Shown here piece after piece: positions 2 to 21,843 of a stretch of 64,000 nt of DNA. Every line of letters begins with the position of its first letter. Positions within the stretch are counted from its first letter, which is position 1. Where the stretch lies: IMG/VR virus record IMGVR_UViG_3300002595_000019, positions 19,513-83,512 of that record. One strand, 5' to 3'. Position numbers and translations under genes: made by a program. The notes beneath the pieces were generated by a model that saw only the letters and a program-made list of their open reading frames with translations, made no database searches and was not told the DNA's origin. This DNA is from a virus.

Positions 2-475
2 CCTCTGACACAGGAGCAAGAGGAACTTTCCCTTATTGCCCGTGACATTTACGGCAGATGCCCTTATGACGGAAAGTACATTATGGACGGTGTTCGCCTG
101 ATCATTTGCCAAAGCAATGTAGAAACGGCAGATTTGAAGAAACTCTATTCCGGTGCGGAAATCAATCCGCTCGGTGACTGGACTGGCGGCACGGATGTAG
201 ATACGGGTGCTACCAACCGTAAACTTGGCAGTGATATGGCTGACTCTGTAACGGGTGGCGGCCTTCACGGCAAAGACCTCAGTAAGGCTGATGTGTCTGT
301 AAATATCTATGCATTCTTAAAGGCGCAGAAAACAAAACAGCCAGTGCAGCTTTGCTGTGCCATCGGAGATGATACCATTGATGGCAAGCCTTATGCGGAA
401 ATAGTAGACATCGCCCGTCAGTACATTCAGAGACTTGGCGGTTTTGAAAAGTTCGCTGAATGGGGTCTGTATTAA
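2..475 (+). CDS. S-adenosylmethionine synthetase-like protein, C-terminal part (5' truncated by window)
   Basis: Frame is open from base 2. INPLGDWTGG..TGATNRKL..GGGLHGKDLSKAD resembles MetK INPTGRF.GG..GLTGRK..GGGAFSGKD. Confidence 0.8.
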   Translation, partial: PLTQEQEELSLIARDIYGRCPYDGKYIMDGVRLIICQSNVETADLKKLYSGAEINPLGDWTGGTDVDTGATNRKLGSDMADSVTGGGLHGKDLSKADVSVNIYAFLKAQKTKQPVQLCCAIGDDTIDGKPYAEIVDIARQYIQRLGGFEKFAEWGLY

Positions 476-485
476 GGAGGGCGCT

Positions 486-1751
486 ATGGGAAGAACAACA
501 ACACAGATGGAACTTGTTTCCATTACAAAATTAGTGCCGTATGTGAATAATGCCCGCACCCATTCCCCGGAGCAGATTATGAAGCTCCGTTCCTCACTGC
601 GTGAATTCGGCTTTATCAATCCTGTCATCATTGATAGGGATTACGGCATCATTGCCGGACACGGCCGTGTGATGGCTGCCAAGGAGGAAGGCATCGATGA
701 AGTGCCTTGTGTTTTCGTGGATTACCTTACTGAGGCACAGAAGAAAGCCTACATCCTTGCTGACAACCGCATGGCGCTCGACGCAGGCTGGGATGAGGAA
801 ATGTTAAAAATCGAAATCGAGTCCTTGCAGGGTATGGATTTTGATATCGGCCTGGCAGGCTTTGACGATGATGAAATCGCAGACCTCTTTGCCGGAGATG
901 ATAAATCTGATGTAAAAGAGGACGATTTTGATTTGAACGATGCTTTGGAAAAGGCTGCCTTTGTGGAGCGTGGCGATGTATGGACGGTAGGCAGACATCG
1001 ACTCATGTGTGGTGATGCTACAAACCCCGATGATGTGGCAACGCTGATGGATGGTAAGAAAGCCAACCTTGTGCTGACAGACCCTCCGTACAATGTAGCC
1101 TTTGAAAGTTCAGACGGTCTGTATATCAAAAACGATAAGATGGCAAGTGAGAAGTTTTATGAATTTCTGCTTTCGGCATTTCAGAACATGGCCGCTCATT
1201 TGGAAAAAGGCGGTGCCGCTTATGTGTTCCACGCTGATACGGAAGGTTTGAATTTCCGTAAGGCATTTATCGATGCAGGCTTTCATCTTTCCGGCTGTTG
1301 CATTTGGGTGAAAAATTCCCTGGTGCTTGGCAGAAGTGATTATCAGTGGCAGCATGAACCTGTGCTTTACGGTTTCCTTCAGAACGGCAAACATTACTGG
1401 AGCAAGAACGCAGGCAGAAGCCAGACCACCATTTGGAACTTCGATAAGCCGAAGAAAAATAAAAATCATCCGACTTCCAAGCCTCTTGACCTGCTTGCCT
1501 ATCCGATTGGAAACTCAAGCCGTGAGAATTCCATTGTAGTGGATACTTTTGGTGGCAGCGGTTCTACGCTGATGGCTTGCGAGAGAACCAACCGTATCTG
1601 CCATACGATGGAACTGGATGAAAAGTACGCATCGGTTATCCTCCGCAGATATGTGGAAGATACAGGTGATGCAGACGGTGTCTTTGTTATCCGTAACGGC
1701 GTGCAGATACCTTATGCCGACCTTGTGAAGGAGGTTGGTGCAGATGAATAA
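486..1751 (+). CDS. ParB-N domain fused to amino (N4/N6) DNA methyltransferase
   Basis: N-terminal PYVNNARTH..GHGR ParB-like segment, DPPY, HPTSKP, FGGSGST; SD AAGGAGG before ATG 486. Confidence 0.9.
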   Translation: MGRTTTQMELVSITKLVPYVNNARTHSPEQIMKLRSSLREFGFINPVIIDRDYGIIAGHGRVMAAKEEGIDEVPCVFVDYLTEAQKKAYILADNRMALDAGWDEEMLKIEIESLQGMDFDIGLAGFDDDEIADLFAGDDKSDVKEDDFDLNDALEKAAFVERGDVWTVGRHRLMCGDATNPDDVATLMDGKKANLVLTDPPYNVAFESSDGLYIKNDKMASEKFYEFLLSAFQNMAAHLEKGGAAYVFHADTEGLNFRKAFIDAGFHLSGCCIWVKNSLVLGRSDYQWQHEPVLYGFLQNGKHYWSKNAGRSQTTIWNFDKPKKNKNHPTSKPLDLLAYPIGNSSRENSIVVDTFGGSGSTLMACERTNRICHTMELDEKYASVILRRYVEDTGDADGVFVIRNGVQIPYADLVKEVGADE

Positions 1752-3561
1752 AAAAACTATAACCCTCGGTAGTCTGTTTGACGGCTCCGGGGGATTTCCT
1801 TTGGGAGGCTTGATTTCCGGTATTACCCCTTTGTGGGCATCGGAAGTTGAGCCTTTTCCTATTCGTGTAACAAGCAGGCGCATTCCTCAGATGAAGCACC
1901 TCGGAGATATTTCCGGTATCAATGGCGCAGAAGTTGAACCCGTGGACATCATTACTTTCGGCAGTCCCTGCCAAGATATGAGCGTGGCGGGAAAACGCAG
2001 CGGTCTTGATGGGGAACGCTCCTGCCTGTTCTACGAAGCAATCCGAATCGTAAAAGAAATGAGGTGTAAAACCAATGGTGAGTATCCAAGATACATCGTG
2101 TGGGAAAATGTCCCCGGCGCCTTCTCCTCAAACGCAGGAGAAGATTTCAAAGCCGTCCTCGAAGCAGTCGCGTCCGTCAAAGGTGACTATGTTGTCCCTT
2201 GTCCTCCAAAAGGAAAATGGACAGGTGCAGGAGAAATCATGGGAGATGGTTTCAGCATCGCATGGAGATGCGTTGACGCGCAGTTTTGGGGAGTTCCCCA
2301 AAGAAGAAGACGAATCTATCTTGTCGCAGATTTTAATGGTGGGTGTGCCGGAAAAATACTATTTGAGTCAGAGGGCCTGTTTAGGAATCTTGAAACGAGC
2401 CGATGCCCGTGGAAAAGAACTACCGGAACTTCTGAAGAAAGCACTCCTGCGACAGGCATCGTCCTAAATGACCAGGGTGGCAACCGAATGGATGTCACCG
2501 ATGATGTTACCTGCACCCTCCGAGCCGAGGCACACCATCCGCCTTGCGTGATGGAGTCTGCGGGATTTTGCACGGAGCATTCTGCTGACAGCCGTGGCAT
2601 CGGTTATGAGGCGGAAAAATCTCCGACACTCCGAGCGGGAGTTGTTCCTGCAACGGTTTATGAAAATCACTCCCAGGATACCCGCTATGTGGGACCTCTT
2701 GATGTGGCACAGACCGTTGCTGCGACCTACGGCACAGGCGGAAACAATCAGCCGTTTGTGGTAGAGCCGACAGCCTTTGGCGTCTGCTCCAAGGACAGCA
2801 ATGCAATGAAATCAGCCAACCCCAACAGCGGATTTTATAAGGCAGACACTTCCCGTACCCTTGACGGCAATGGTGGAAACCCTACCTGCAATCAGGGTGG
2901 CATTGCCATTGTGGAAGGCAACGGCTCACGTCCTTCCCACCACGGTAATGGTTATGCTGAAAGTGATGTCATGTATACCTTGAACACCGTAGACCGCCAC
3001 GCTGTTGTTTATGCCATTGACCGTGAAAGTTATAACTGCGGTCAGAACTTCGCAAGGAATATGGGTATCAGTGATGAGGGTGTCAATTCAACACTGAAAG
3101 CCACGGGGCCCGATGCGGTTGCCGTTCCCACCTACTCAAGCAGCAAGGCATCGTTCTTTACCTCTGCGGAGGAGGAACTTGCCAACACTTTAGTAGCTAC
3201 GGATTACAAAGACCCTCCGCTTGTCAACGATACCGATGCGGATCTGGAGTACATTGTCCGCAGACTTACTCCAACGGAGTGTGCAAGGCTCCAGGGATTT
3301 CCGGATTGGTGGTGTGCTGACCTTGGTGAGAAACTTCCTTCTGAAGAGGAACTCACACGGTGGGCAGAAATCTTTGAAACACATCGTAAGATTGTGGGAA
3401 CATCAAGCAAACCGAAAACACGGAAGCAGATATTCAAGTGGCTTCAGAACCCTCATTCCGATTCGGCGGAGTATAAGATGTGGGGCAACGGCGTGGCACT
3501 GCCCAATGTGGTTTATGTGCTGATGGGCATCGTGTACTATACACAAAACGAAGGGGTGTAA
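1744..3561 (+). CDS. C5-cytosine DNA methyltransferase with long variable region
   Basis: Motifs SLFDGSGG (I), GSPCQD (IV), WENVPG (VI), QRRRRIY (VIII), RRLTPTECARLQGFP (IX), YKMWGNGV (X). Confidence 0.92.
   Translation: MNKKTITLGSLFDGSGGFPLGGLISGITPLWASEVEPFPIRVTSRRIPQMKHLGDISGINGAEVEPVDIITFGSPCQDMSVAGKRSGLDGERSCLFYEAIRIVKEMRCKTNGEYPRYIVWENVPGAFSSNAGEDFKAVLEAVASVKGDYVVPCPPKGKWTGAGEIMGDGFSIAWRCVDAQFWGVPQRRRRIYLVADFNGGCAGKILFESEGLFRNLETSRCPWKRTTGTSEESTPATGIVLNDQGGNRMDVTDDVTCTLRAEAHHPPCVMESAGFCTEHSADSRGIGYEAEKSPTLRAGVVPATVYENHSQDTRYVGPLDVAQTVAATYGTGGNNQPFVVEPTAFGVCSKDSNAMKSANPNSGFYKADTSRTLDGNGGNPTCNQGGIAIVEGNGSRPSHHGNGYAESDVMYTLNTVDRHAVVYAIDRESYNCGQNFARNMGISDEGVNSTLKATGPDAVAVPTYSSSKASFFTSAEEELANTLVATDYKDPPLVNDTDADLEYIVRRLTPTECARLQGFPDWWCADLGEKLPSEEELTRWAEIFETHRKIVGTSSKPKTRKQIFKWLQNPHSDSAEYKMWGNGVALPNVVYVLMGIVYYTQNEGV
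2075..2467 (+). CDS. Nested alternative-frame ORF inside the C5 MTase, resembling the beta polypeptide of M.EcoHK31I-type enzymes
   Basis: Own SD GAGGTG (2061-2066) 8 nt before ATG; ends LSQIL..VPEKYYLSQRACLGILKRADARGKELPELLKKAL. Confidence 0.7.
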   Translation: MVSIQDTSCGKMSPAPSPQTQEKISKPSSKQSRPSKVTMLSLVLQKENGQVQEKSWEMVSASHGDALTRSFGEFPKEEDESILSQILMVGVPEKYYLSQRACLGILKRADARGKELPELLKKALLRQASS

Positions 3562-3597
3562 ATCTACAAGTATTCTCCCATATATTTTGCACATATG

Positions 3598-3637
3598 ACT
3601 TGCTATTTTTGCCCTTTAGAGTGATATATGTAGTACC
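3598..3637 (+). promoter_or_regulatory. Promoter-like motif upstream of the virulence-related gene
   Basis: ACTTGCTA-N-GAGTGATATATGTAGTACC; close match at 51063-51104 upstream of the homologous gene. Confidence 0.5.
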
Positions 3638-3659
3638 GAAAATAAAGGAGGTACTCAAT

Positions 3660-4379
3660 ATGAGATTTGAATTTAATGTAACAGGTAGCGACCGCAAGGC
3701 ACTGGTTACAGCAATGGGCGAAATTCTAAATGTGAAACCGAAATACATGGGAATGCCCAGCATGAACTACGAAGTGGATTATTTCACGGTAACAAAGGAC
3801 GGTGCGGTGGAGTTTGATGACAGAGCCGACAGCGAGGAAATCGAGCAGTTGCTTGAGAGCCTTGCCGATAAAGACTTTGTCGCAGCTCCCGCAGAAATGG
3901 CGCAGGCTTGGCTTGATGCAAGAGCCGAGGAATCATCCGAAGAAACTGCCGAACAGCCACAGGGCGAAACGGTGGGGCTTACGGTGGCGATTCCTTTGGA
4001 TAAGGTTTCGGTCGGCAATCTGACAAACCTTCTGGATGCCAAGGGCAGCCTTATCAAAAAGGCTCTGGGCATTGATGCAACGCCGATTGAAATCGGAGAG
4101 GACAAGGTTTCCTTTCCTTGGTTTGAGCAAGGCTTGGATGCAGATGAGGTCAAGGCTTACAGCCACCTCATTGCCGCCTTATGTGAGATGAGCAGAAATC
4201 AGAAGCGTATCAGTGCCACAGAAAAGGCAGTGGATAACGAGAAATACGCATTCCGATGCTTTCTCCTGCGCCTCGGTTTTATTGGCAACGAATACAAGAC
4301 CGAGAGAAAAATCCTGCTCCGCAACCTTTCCGGCAGCAGTGCTTTCAAGGGAGGTGCGAAGAATGAGATTTCCGAATAA
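3660..4379 (+). CDS. Conserved phage protein (family usually labelled virulence-related protein)
   Basis: C-terminal NEKYAFRCFLLRLGFIG..RKILLRNLSGSSAF; SD AAGGAGG; homologue at 51132. Confidence 0.75.
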   Translation: MRFEFNVTGSDRKALVTAMGEILNVKPKYMGMPSMNYEVDYFTVTKDGAVEFDDRADSEEIEQLLESLADKDFVAAPAEMAQAWLDARAEESSEETAEQPQGETVGLTVAIPLDKVSVGNLTNLLDAKGSLIKKALGIDATPIEIGEDKVSFPWFEQGLDADEVKAYSHLIAALCEMSRNQKRISATEKAVDNEKYAFRCFLLRLGFIGNEYKTERKILLRNLSGSSAFKGGAKNEISE

Positions 4380-5275: not shown

Positions 5276-6880
5276 TTGCGAAAACTGAAAAACTACAAGC
5301 CAACCTGTTTCATGGCGGAAGGCAGCTATTACGATAAGGATGCCGCCGACCACGCAGTATGCTTTATCGAAAAATTCTGCTGTCATACCAAAGGCACATG
5401 GGATGGAAAACCATTTGAACTGATTGATTGGCAGGAGCAGATTATCCGTGACATCTTCGGCATTTTGAAACCAAACGGCTACAGGCAGTTCAACACAGCC
5501 TACATCGAAATACCGAAGAAGCAAGGGAAATCGGAACTGGCGGCGGCAGTGGCACTGTATCTTCTGTGTGCAGACTTCGAGCCGGGTGCAGAGGTTTACG
5601 GCTGTGCTGCGGATAAAGACCAGGCACGAATCGTATTTGACGTTGCATTGGAGATGGTAAGGCGAAGTCCTCTGCTGAAAAATAAAATGACCATCCAGGC
5701 AAGCCAGAAGACCATGACCTACAATCCTACGGGAAGTAAGTACAAGGCTCTGTCTGCGGATGTGGCAAACAAGCATGGTTTCAATACCCACGGCGTTATT
5801 TTTGATGAGCTGCATACCCAACCGAACAGAAAACTGTTTGATGTAATGACCAAGGGTTCCGGCGATGCAAGAATGCAGCCACTTTACTTCCTGATCACCA
5901 CGGCGGGAAATGATACGCAGTCCATCTGCTATGAAATCCACCAGAAGGCAAAGGACATCATCGAAGGTCGAAAAGTTGACCCTACCTTCTACCCTGTGAT
6001 TTACGGTGCAGAGGATGATGATGACTGGACTGACCCGGAAGTATGGAAGAAAGCTAATCCCTCCCTTGGGGTGACGGTCGGCATCGATAAGGTGCAGCAA
6101 GCCTGTGAACAGGCACAGCAGAACCCTGGCGAAGAGAACGCTTTCCGTCAGCTTCGTCTGAATCAGTGGGTCAAGCAGGCTGTCCGTTGGATGCCGATGG
6201 CAGTGTGGGATGCCTGTGCGTTTCCTACCGACAAATCCGAACTGGAAGGCCGTGTCTGCTACGGCGGTCTTGACCTTTCTTCCACAACGGATATTACGGC
6301 TTTTGTGTTGGTGTTTCCACCGGAAGATGAGGATGATAAATACATCATTCTCCCGTATTTCTGGATACCGGAAGATAACATCGACCTGCGTGTGCGACGT
6401 GACCATGTGCCGTATGACATTTGGGAACGACAGGACTTGCTTATGACCACCGAGGGCAATGTAGTTCATTACGGCTACATTGAGAAATTCATCGAGTCCC
6501 TGGGTGAGAAGTATAACATCCGTGAAATCGCCTATGACCGTTGGGGTGCTGTGCAGATGGTGCAGAACCTTGAGGGCATGGGATTTACGGTAGTGCCTTT
6601 CGGACAAGGGTACAAAGATATGTCCCCTCCGACCAAAGAACTGATGAAACTTGCGATGGAGAAAAAACTGGCTCACGGCGGTCATCCCGTTCTCCGTTGG
6701 ATGATGGATAACATCTACATCAAAACGGACCCTGCGGGAAACATCAAAGCTGATAAAGCCAAATCCACAGAAAAGATTGACGGTGCCGTTGCTACCATTA
6801 TGGCACTCGACCGTGCAATCCGCTGTGGCAACACCAACAGTGCCAGCGTTTATGACGAGCGTGGCATTTTGTTTATTTAG
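5276..6880 (+). CDS. Terminase large subunit
   Basis: IPKKQGKS Walker A, IFDELH Walker B, GLDLSST nuclease motif, KIDGAVA; TTG start with SD GAGGAGG. Confidence 0.95.
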   Translation: MRKLKNYKPTCFMAEGSYYDKDAADHAVCFIEKFCCHTKGTWDGKPFELIDWQEQIIRDIFGILKPNGYRQFNTAYIEIPKKQGKSELAAAVALYLLCADFEPGAEVYGCAADKDQARIVFDVALEMVRRSPLLKNKMTIQASQKTMTYNPTGSKYKALSADVANKHGFNTHGVIFDELHTQPNRKLFDVMTKGSGDARMQPLYFLITTAGNDTQSICYEIHQKAKDIIEGRKVDPTFYPVIYGAEDDDDWTDPEVWKKANPSLGVTVGIDKVQQACEQAQQNPGEENAFRQLRLNQWVKQAVRWMPMAVWDACAFPTDKSELEGRVCYGGLDLSSTTDITAFVLVFPPEDEDDKYIILPYFWIPEDNIDLRVRRDHVPYDIWERQDLLMTTEGNVVHYGYIEKFIESLGEKYNIREIAYDRWGAVQMVQNLEGMGFTVVPFGQGYKDMSPPTKELMKLAMEKKLAHGGHPVLRWMMDNIYIKTDPAGNIKADKAKSTEKIDGAVATIMALDRAIRCGNTNSASVYDERGILFI

Positions 6881-19372: not shown

Positions 19373-21843
19373 GGGATAAATTAAAAGGCAAACGCATCAT
19401 GGTGTGGACATTCATGGGCAATGCCCGTATGTATGAGGCTCTCCGTGATTACGGCGACCGTATCGACACCATTGGTCTGTTTTCTTTCAAGGTGGATGCC
19501 ACGGGAACGATTACCGAGAGCGGTGTTCCCATCAGCAATATGCTGACCTATATTAACAAATGGCCGCATATCCGATGGTTGCTGACCGTTGCTAATGATG
19601 GTGCAAATTCTATCTTTAAGGCTTTGCGTAACAATACGAATGGCGCACAGGACACCTTCTGTTCCGAACTTGTCCGAATCATGGAGAAATACCCGTGGTG
19701 CAATGGCGTGGATATCGACCTGGAAAAGGGTGATGATTATTCTACCCATGCAGCGTCCACAGCTATGTTCAAACATATCTATGAAACGGTAAAAGCCTAT
19801 GATTCTACCAAGGAGATGAATATCTGTCTGCCGGGTATGACTTCGGTTAACGGCTCGGTTGGTGGCGAAAACTGGTGCGTATATGGTGATTTGGATAAAT
19901 ACTGTGATACGGCTTCTATTATGAGTTACGGTATGGCTTGGGCGGGTTCTGCTCCCGGTCCTGTTTCTCCAAGGAGCTGGCTTGAGGGAATTTACGATTA
20001 TGCAACGAAAGTTATGAATCCCGACAAGGTATTCCTCGGTATGCCTGCCTACGGTTGGAACTGGCAGATTTATGACACGCCGGAGAACCTAGGCAAATAT
20101 TACCGAGGTACATCCCACACCTATTATGCTGCGAAATACTGGATGCAGGGCGTTTACAACTTTACCGATGACGCACCTCCGCAGCCGTTCATTCCTATAG
20201 TTTCCTATTGGGATGACTACGATATGGGGCCGTGGGCATTGCCCCATGTGTATGACTACATGGAAGGCAGAGATGCCGTTTCAAAGGAGTATCCGCAGAT
20301 GTCGGAAACCTACAACCGCAGACGCTATCTGACCGCTTATGCCAAACAGCAAAAGACGGAGTTCGGAGATATTCTTATCGACCACAATGCCGAGCCGGAC
20401 AGTTATTCCGGTGTGGTATCCGTGTCTGAAACCTTGGTAACTCTCGGTGATGAGGGTTCTGCCACCTACAAGTTCACTATTGATGAGGACGGCACCTACG
20501 ATGTTGCCATTCGCCTATGCTATCCGTTTTGGGATAAGAACAGCATTTACGCATCGTTGGACGGCAGCATGGTTCACTTTTCCGAGGATAGGATTTGGTG
20601 GCCATATTGGAGGACTACCTTCTGGGCAACTCTCGCCAAGGGAGTAAGCCTATCTGCCGGAGAGCATACACTGACCATTTCTGTTGGCGTCAACGGTGTG
20701 CAGTTCTATGGTTTCCGTGTCTGCACGGATTTTTCGGAAGAACCCACTGCAGGTCAAGCGGAATACACCCTTGCTCCTCGTAAGTTTAAGGATGTAAACG
20801 GTGATATGGTGGGACCCGCCACAGGGTTCAAGCTGACATTGGAAATGCTACGCAGAAAGCCTGACTCGGCATTGGTTTGGTATGAGGACTTTCGTGATGA
20901 GCAGAAAATCCCGGAAAGTTACTGGACGGTTCTCTCCGGCGAATGGGATGTATGGCAGGAGGATTTGCCTTATGGTGATACAAGCCGACCATACTCACAG
21001 CTTGAGGGTTACGGTCAGCTTGCTTGGAATTATAACGGCTTTTCCGATATCCATCTGAGGGCACAGATTATCTTCCCGGAAAACGGTGGCGGCAAAGCGG
21101 GTGTGTTCCTCGGTTCGCTGTTTTGCTGTTTTAACTATGACAGCCAGTGCATCGAACTGTATGAGGGGTCTACACTCAAAGGCAGCTATGCCACTGATTT
21201 CTCACAAACCGCAAAGGCTGACCTTCGCACCAATCCCAATATCTATACCATTGAGATGCGTAAGCGTGGAAATAAGGTGCGAGTTTATTCCTCTGCATCC
21301 TATACGCTACGATTTACGGCAACGGTCAGCGATATCAGCGGTTATGCAGGCATCCGCTCCGATAACCAAATCAACTGCCAACTGCTCCGTTTGGGTGACG
21401 CCTGGACGTATGAGCCATATGAGAGGTTCGATGTGGTAATGCCGGACGGAACGGAGACTTCTTTCGGCAGGATTGAGCGTAGCAACTGCACATGGGATGA
21501 GGAGTTCCAAGTGTTCACGCTGACTTCCGATGTGGAGGAATCGTCCACAAGGGATGAAAGTATCTCCCTGGACTATGAGTTCTACCATTCCCATGTGATG
21601 GCTTTGGAGTGTGGCAATGACTACACGGCAAAAATCATCCCAAGGGATATCAATATATGGATTTCAAGGATGTTCCTTGGAGATGCAGACGGCTTTTCAA
21701 TTCTGTATTACCAGGATGTGGACAGCCTGATCTATTGGGCGAACCAGGCAGCATACCGATGGAAACTGCGAGGGATGTGTATGTGGTCCCTTGGGCAGGA
21801 GGATATGCGAGTATGGGAGTGGCTGCCCAAGCAAACTGAATAA
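19369..21843 (+). CDS. GH18 glycosyl hydrolase with inserted beta-sandwich domains
   Basis: NGVDIDLE (DxDxE), IMSYG, KVFLGMPAYG; C-terminal LRGMCMWSLGQED. Confidence 0.85.
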   Translation: MRDKLKGKRIMVWTFMGNARMYEALRDYGDRIDTIGLFSFKVDATGTITESGVPISNMLTYINKWPHIRWLLTVANDGANSIFKALRNNTNGAQDTFCSELVRIMEKYPWCNGVDIDLEKGDDYSTHAASTAMFKHIYETVKAYDSTKEMNICLPGMTSVNGSVGGENWCVYGDLDKYCDTASIMSYGMAWAGSAPGPVSPRSWLEGIYDYATKVMNPDKVFLGMPAYGWNWQIYDTPENLGKYYRGTSHTYYAAKYWMQGVYNFTDDAPPQPFIPIVSYWDDYDMGPWALPHVYDYMEGRDAVSKEYPQMSETYNRRRYLTAYAKQQKTEFGDILIDHNAEPDSYSGVVSVSETLVTLGDEGSATYKFTIDEDGTYDVAIRLCYPFWDKNSIYASLDGSMVHFSEDRIWWPYWRTTFWATLAKGVSLSAGEHTLTISVGVNGVQFYGFRVCTDFSEEPTAGQAEYTLAPRKFKDVNGDMVGPATGFKLTLEMLRRKPDSALVWYEDFRDEQKIPESYWTVLSGEWDVWQEDLPYGDTSRPYSQLEGYGQLAWNYNGFSDIHLRAQIIFPENGGGKAGVFLGSLFCCFNYDSQCIELYEGSTLKGSYATDFSQTAKADLRTNPNIYTIEMRKRGNKVRVYSSASYTLRFTATVSDISGYAGIRSDNQINCQLLRLGDAWTYEPYERFDVVMPDGTETSFGRIERSNCTWDEEFQVFTLTSDVEESSTRDESISLDYEFYHSHVMALECGNDYTAKIIPRDINIWISRMFLGDADGFSILYYQDVDSLIYWANQAAYRWKLRGMCMWSLGQEDMRVWEWLPKQTE

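Follow-up and report, generated by a model that had tools for sequence, protein, structure and literature searches.

A conserved gene nested in the +1 frame of a phage C5 cytosine DNA methyltransferase gene may encode a second chain of the enzyme

We analyzed a 64,000-nucleotide (nt) stretch of viral DNA, hereafter the window, which corresponds to positions 19,513 to 83,512 of the IMG/VR record IMGVR_UViG_3300002595_000019 and is part of a 96-kb provirus record. The window carries a gene for a C5 cytosine DNA methyltransferase (C5 MTase) of 605 amino acids (aa), inside which a second open reading frame (ORF) of 130 aa lies wholly embedded in the +1 frame. Comparison with homologous loci indicates that this nested ORF is a real gene under purifying selection, and we consider it probable that it is a separate gene whose product binds the 605-aa chain and supplies in trans a segment missing from it. 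The two frames and their parts are located as follows.

1744..3561, + strand: main C5 cytosine DNA methyltransferase ORF (P0001; "alpha"), ATG at 1744, stop at 3561, 605 aa, Pfam PF00145
2060..2066, + strand: alternative-frame stop TGA (2060-2062) and overlapping Shine-Dalgarno sequence GAGGTG (2061-2066), encoded in main-frame GAA-ATG-AGG (E-M-R)
2075..2467, + strand: nested +1-frame gene (P0002; proposed "beta"), stop codon included, 130 aa
2075..2293, + strand: nested N-terminal 73 residues, Ser/Lys/Pro-rich, variable and predicted to be disordered, overlapping motifs VI-VIII
2294..2464, + strand: nested C-terminal conserved element of 57 residues, with three predicted helices
2305..2455, + strand: zone of strongest nested-frame constraint, where main-frame third positions are nearly frozen

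The main product matches Pfam PF00145 with an E-value of 2e-38, and the C5 MTase motifs I, IV, VI, VIII, IX and X are legible in canonical order when read with the patterns FxGxG (I), PCQ (IV), ENV (VI), QxRxR (VIII), RxLTxxE..RLQGFP (IX) and GNG/GNS-V (X). The corresponding sequences are FDGSGG, SPCQDMS, WENVPG, QRRRR, RRLTPTECARLQGFPD and WGNGVALP, respectively, and about 300 aa of variable sequence separate motif VIII from motif IX. The nested ORF begins 331 nt after the main start (2075-1744), which places it in the +1 frame, and overlaps motif VI (ENV, ~nt 2103) and motif VIII (QRRRR, ~nt 2299) of the main frame. The C-terminal part of its product reads ..SILSQIL..VPEKYYLS..GILKRADARGKELPELL.., an LSxIL-KYYLS element for which a profile search of the 605-aa protein (hmmsearch --max, E up to 1000) gave no match. 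At this locus, the segment between motif VIII and the target-recognition region is present in the +1 frame only. A preliminary description of the window had pointed to a 130-aa +1-frame ORF with its own Shine-Dalgarno sequence inside the MTase gene, overlapping motifs VI-VIII while motif IX stays in the main ORF; its coordinates and description are correct, and the distribution of the motifs can be read directly in the two proteins.

The signals for an independent start are compact. The Shine-Dalgarno sequence GAGGTG lies 8 nt ahead of the nested ATG at 2075, and the alternative-frame TGA that it overlaps forms the upstream boundary of the nested ORF. Among 31 representatives sharing less than 90% aa identity with each other and 62-75% identity with the window, GAAATGAGG is nucleotide-identical and the nested ATG is present in every case. 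The main-frame E-M-R codons are GAA-ATG-AGG in 31/31, the arginine being always encoded by AGG out of six possible codons, so that the alternative-frame TGA and the GAGG Shine-Dalgarno core are both preserved. Likewise, the Asn/Asp codon that provides the "AT" of the nested ATG ends in T in all 31. When one genome per bacterial species was scanned, GA[AG]ATGAGG followed by an ATG at the fifth codon past the TGA was found in 71 of 76 species genomes. An internal methionine of the nested frame (..GKMS.., nt 2105-2113 in the window, also found in homologues) arises from the main-frame W-E-N-V codons of motif VI and is conserved as their by-product; it could act as an alternative start.

Variation among the 31 representatives switches from one frame to the other along the gene. 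On either side of the overlap (up to nt 2035 and from nt 2455), main-frame third positions have an entropy of 1.2-1.6 bits; it is mildly lowered to about 1.0 bit over the nested N-terminal part, and falls to 0.24-0.61 bits over nt 2305-2455. Between nt 2365 and 2455, the most variable codon position is the first of the main frame, that is, the third of the nested frame, and the usual main-frame periodicity resumes from nt 2455, at the nested stop. Amino acid entropies follow the same course: over nt 2365-2455, they amount to 0.40-1.07 bits for the nested product vs 0.84-2.07 bits for the main one, and over the nested N-terminal part to 1.0-2.1 vs 0.2-1.2 bits, with the exception of a variable block at nt 2185-2214 where both frames reach ~2.1-2.2 bits. 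Synonymous sites are thus suppressed in the main frame and the periodicity is that of the nested one, as expected from purifying selection on the alternative frame. The main frame had been described as low-constraint filler within the overlap; this is true from about nt 2365 to 2455, but upstream of that point both frames are conserved.

The nested frame is also open well beyond the window. A tblastn search with the nested protein retrieved 130 phage records. All 64 classifiable homologous loci of viruses and phages, among them P1 dmt, a Vibrio phage and a Morganella phage, keep 132-164 codons of the +1 frame free of stops, against just 4-52 codons in the +2 frame. By contrast, the +1 frame is closed in 7/7 control genes that carry the element in their main frame (described below). 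In the collection with one genome per species, at least 571 of the matched stretches encode the element, and sorting the layout of the best 80 of these loci gave 70 with the nested arrangement, nine cut short and one unclassified. The conserved open frame, the start signals and the switch in codon position bear out the earlier view of the locus as dual-coded, and the check then proposed, that both frames stay open in homologues with suppression at synonymous sites, gave a positive answer.

Annotation of the nested gene is uneven. In five phage records that we inspected, the nested protein matches the +1 frame of an annotated methyltransferase coding sequence in 5/5, and none of them (Streptococcus phage Javan105, Acutalibacteraceae phage NatCom_11578, phage P1, Vibrio phage 1.033.O and Morganella phage Mecenats66) carries a nested coding sequence annotation, in agreement with the initial suspicion that standard annotation misses the gene. 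The nested ORF has nonetheless been called independently as a gene in 248 database entries, mostly of 128-136 aa and down to 50% identity. In phage P1 (NC_005856.1), the dmt gene (66412-68676) contains the same +1-frame ORF (L083:2180-2671), which spans 163 codons from stop to stop, ends with ..LLSQVLEQTSIPQRYFLSSKACAGILRRGEKRRKSLPPLL.. and has a plausible start, GTGGAG-N7-ATG, at locus nt 2198. Phage P1 would therefore be a convenient laboratory model for the nested gene.

The open second frame also lets frameshift errors pass as plausible gene calls. About 50 metagenome or assembly proteins of 230-260 aa (among P0122-P0180) consist of the N-terminus of the MTase fused to the nested frame. 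A fixed junction, indicative of a programmed frameshift, was sought in nine of these ~240-aa fusions by reading them residue by residue. The junction lies at a different position in each, and the fusions were therefore taken as the result of sequencing or assembly indel errors rather than of a programmed site.

An alignment of 37 nested-protein sequences (A1) shows that strong conservation is confined to the last 57 residues, with the consensus FP.EE..S.LSQIL..VPEKYYLS..ACLGILRRA.ARGKELP..L..AL..Q. The alignment and profile of this element (A2) contain 19 invariant columns and a mean column identity of 69%. AlphaFold2, run with A1, predicts residues 1-75 to be disordered, with a predicted local distance difference test (pLDDT) score below 50 for most of residues 1-65, and places helices at residues 77-88, 99-112 and 118-129, with block-mean pLDDT values of 86-91 over the last 30 residues. 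The main frame dominates constraint over the nested N-terminal part, where motifs VI-VIII are encoded. The C-terminal module overlaps the main-frame sequence ADF.GG.AGKILFE..., in which "KILFES" is the other reading of "KYYLS". The nested protein has a weak match in PHROGs to phrog_16143, annotated "DNA methyltransferase" (E 1.6e-5). A Foldseek search of its model against the PDB returned nothing at E up to 0.001, a result of little weight given the small size of the module and the disorder of two thirds of the model.

Searched at large, the A2 profile matches 4284 clusters at 50% identity with E up to 1e-3, of which 2927 have E up to 1e-10, and the element is carried in three gene layouts, which we term cis, nested and split. 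In the cis layout (P0176, P0330-P0341 and P0345), single-chain C5 MTases of ~510-750 aa, several of them from NCBI records, contain the element in their main frame about 50 residues past motif VIII, followed by the target-recognition region and motifs IX-X. They match the window enzyme in their catalytic domain and in the C-terminal region (~45-56% identity to P0176 in alignment A5), and share with the nested product of the window the element LSEIL..KYYLS..ACLGILRRA..RGK.LP. The genomic neighborhood is shared as well: among six cis loci with visible neighbors, four (L087, L170, L172 and L173) sit behind a ParB-methyltransferase gene in a phage-like context. They differ from the window locus in having the element in the main frame and the +1 frame closed across motifs VI-VIII, where 1-4 stops occur in 7/7 cis-type genes vs none in 31/31 nested-type genes. 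This contrast implies that the enzyme never goes without the element, which comes from the main frame or from the second one, but not from both. The model of P0176 (predicted template modeling score 0.73) adopts the C5 MTase fold, with M.HhaI (1fjx) matched at Z 29.3 and a root-mean-square deviation of 2.7 over 298 residues, and its element region (residues ~214-270) is confidently folded (pLDDT 79-91). The proposal that the element normally follows motif VIII in frame in C5 MTases thus holds in the cis family (P0176, P0330-P0341), the similarity to Escherichia coli Dcm being weak.

In the nested layout, which is that of the window and the commonest among its close relatives, the element alone is in the +1 frame. 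The split layout occurs in conjugative-element loci and goes further: a frame-0 ORF with motifs I-VIII ends about 75 codons past motif VIII, and a +1-frame ORF, which begins just past the same alternative-frame TGA, encodes the N-terminal overlap, the element, the target-recognition region and motifs IX-X. Motifs IX-X being on the +1 chain, the latter must cooperate with the chain bearing motifs I-VIII. Proteins of this layout are common, the group P0348, P0354-P0357 including clusters of 27 (P0348), 49 (P0354) and 296 (P0356) member sequences. One example is located as follows.

L086:2080-3934: split C5 MTase (GCA_016295295.1), frame-0 ORF at 2080-2991 and +1-frame ORF at 2498-3934 (477 aa), overlapping by ~165 codons

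The neighbors of this split gene include TrbL_5, DUF3852 and ParE genes, a conjugative-element context, and only its second ORF was called as a gene, leaving the catalytic half unannotated.

Taken together, single-chain relatives hold the module between motif VIII and the target-recognition region and the main protein of the window is without it, hence the proposal that it is supplied in trans. In such a mechanism, ribosomes would start at ATG 2075 by means of the GAGG(T)G Shine-Dalgarno sequence that the main-frame E-M-R codons contain. The resulting protein would comprise a disordered, basic N-terminal tail, whose sequence would be largely dictated by main-frame motifs VI-VIII, and a compact helical C-terminal module of ~55 residues (LSxIL - KYYLS - AC.GILRRA - RGKxLP - L..AL). 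This module would associate with the 605-aa chain and fill the segment between motif VIII and the target-recognition region, so that one locus would yield a two-polypeptide enzyme. When the 605-aa chain (A3) and the 57-residue element (A2) were co-folded, the scores were 0.72, 0.69 and 0.72; they are not specific, as one unrelated control partner reached 0.61.

Several observations weigh against this proposal. When the main frame of the window is shuffled among synonymous codons, the +1 frame stays open in 19% of cases (0.1-46% depending on the homologue), and the openness of a single sequence is therefore not evidence; it is the openness in homologues, the start signals, the codon-position switch and the closure of the +1 frame in cis relatives that take the comparative evidence beyond chance. 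The N-terminal 75 residues of the nested product look like a by-product of the main frame, and the nested start sits far upstream of the functional module. Searches of Pfam and NCBIfam with the nested protein give no match, and its profile finds just antibody light-chain noise among PDB sequences (E > 0.3). The placement of the element in the classical fold is modeled on a single member of the cis family. Aligned with hhalign, the element pairs with residues 308-336 of E. coli Dcm at a probability of 4% and a pairwise E of 0.01; the alignment falls at the expected place after motif VIII and, given these weak statistics, a counterpart in Dcm is suggestive only. Finally, translation of the nested frame, physical association of the two chains and the requirement of the small one for methylation are steps that we infer.

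These points leave room for other explanations. A nested gene that is real, translated and selected might have no role in completing the MTase, and might act for instance as a regulator of the timing or dose of the enzyme, or as a DNA-binding or anti-defense factor that descends from an old MTase segment. Neither purifying selection nor start signals reveal function, a basic disordered tail with a small helical module could suit a regulator, and the co-folding score is unspecific. We nevertheless judge such a role unlikely: related single-chain MTases have the module built into their main frame, its cis and nested forms never occur together, and in the split layout it is joined covalently to the target-recognition region and motifs IX-X, three observations that tie it to the enzyme itself. 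A further alternative concerns the route by which the nested frame is reached, which might be +1 ribosomal frameshifting or transcriptional slippage, the product then being a ~240-aa fusion of motifs I-VIII with the element and not a free 130-aa protein. We regard this as distinctly improbable, since the conserved Shine-Dalgarno sequence, its fixed spacing and an ATG 80 codons ahead of the functional module would be needless, and since the +1 frame is open from the nested ATG onward and not merely from a shift site; the ~50 database fusions do have exactly the expected layout and an A/G-rich run (CCCCAAAGAAGAAGA) is present in the region, but the junctions in the nine that were read vary as described above.

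It could also be argued that the frame is untranslated, its conservation reflecting a constraint at the nucleotide level (RNA structure or a regulatory site) or the decay of a relic of an ancestral frame. Translation is here predicted from sequence, and the openness of one sequence is compatible with chance; yet the variation has coding periodicity with a free nested third position, Firmicutes phages share the peptide motif with P1 and Vibrio phages although their codon usage differs, the frame is closed in cis-type relatives, and a relic would not retain start signals in 71 of 76 species. Of all the alternatives, we give this one the least credence. A nested gene whose product completes the 605-aa chain is thus the explanation that we favor.

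The neighborhood of the C5 MTase gene in the window includes a second methyltransferase gene and the large terminase gene.

435..1751, + strand: ParB-domain N6/N4 methyltransferase gene, upstream neighbor of the C5 MTase gene
5276-6880: large terminase gene, downstream of the C5 MTase gene

The end of the ParB-domain methyltransferase gene and the start of the C5 MTase gene overlap by 8 nt (1744-1751, ATGAATAA), and this stop/start overlap suggests that the two orphan methyltransferases are translationally coupled. The same pair, in the same order and ahead of terminase genes, is also found in phages Javan105 and NatCom_11578. At one of the cis-type phage loci (L087:711-1676), a NUMOD4/HNH homing-endonuclease-like gene stands between two pieces of an N6/N4 methyltransferase gene, an arrangement that looks like an endonuclease insertion splitting the ParB-methyltransferase gene.

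Long genes that overlap on one strand are considered rare in double-stranded DNA phages and bacteria, and gene callers forbid them. Here, an overlap is conserved across thousands of methyltransferase genes (4284 element-profile clusters at 50% identity), including P1 dmt. If the small protein is a required subunit, a recoded or codon-optimized construct of the annotated ORF alone would silently destroy the nested gene, which is relevant to studies of phage anti-restriction methylation, to the assignment of methylome motifs to genes and to the use of these enzymes as tools. From an evolutionary standpoint, the case is a clean one: the overprinted frame would be an ancestral segment of the enzyme and not a protein that arose de novo, and nature provides cis, nested and split forms that can be compared. 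On a broader scale, we give an even chance to the proposal that obligate two-chain enzymes make up the very large family of orphan C5 MTases found in Firmicutes phages, in conjugative elements and in proteobacterial phages, P1 with its Dmt among them. In this proposal, the second chain would be +1-nested and unannotated, the three layouts would be interconvertible, and the dose or timing of the small chain relative to the catalytic one would be a control point for the moment at which phage DNA is methylated.

Two-polypeptide C5 MTases have been described and provide a precedent for the two-chain proposal. In M.EcoHK31I from E. coli HK31 (YGGCCR; Lee, Kam and Shaw 1995), the beta chain is encoded wholly inside the alpha gene in another frame and carries motif IX, and both chains are needed for methylation (PMC2836561, PMC3404938). 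In M.AquI from Agmenellum quadruplicatum (Karreman and de Waard 1990), motifs I-VIII are on one chain and motifs IX-X on the other (PMC3404938), and artificial fragments of monomeric C5 MTases can complement each other (PMC3404938). Our literature search found these two precedents and no description of the present nested gene, its coverage being incomplete, so that the unpublished status of the gene is unproven.

The window locus resembles M.EcoHK31I in that a small chain is encoded wholly within the gene of the large chain in another frame. In M.EcoHK31I, the small chain supplies a conserved segment that the large one lacks, and by analogy we propose the same for the window locus. The two systems differ in the segment concerned: the beta chain of M.EcoHK31I has motif IX, whereas in the window motifs IX (RRLTPTECARLQGFPD) and X belong to the large chain, and the nested product has no motif IX but the segment past motif VIII, an LSxIL-KYYLS helical module. 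Because of this different location of motif IX, homology between the nested product and the beta chain is unlikely, and the parallel would lie in the gene architecture and not in the sequence family, a different module being outsourced. Furthermore, M.EcoHK31I belongs to a restriction-modification system, whereas the window gene is part of an orphan enzyme family of phages and integrative conjugative elements with thousands of members, and the need for both chains, demonstrated for M.EcoHK31I, is postulated here. M.AquI, a C5 MTase split in the variable region, is the counterpart of the split relatives (L086, P0348, P0354-P0357), although in the latter the second ORF begins ~100 codons upstream, inside the first. 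The large chain of the window differs from that of M.AquI in keeping motifs IX-X, with only the 57-residue module outsourced.

Small phage genes embedded out of frame in larger ones are known from Rz1 inside Rz in phage lambda, whose products cooperate, and from E inside D in phiX174. As in the window, the small gene has a ribosome-binding site of its own and lies entirely within a larger phage gene. The embedded genes of lambda and phiX174 encode novel proteins, whereas the nested frame of the window would encode an ancestral segment of the very enzyme that it overlaps.

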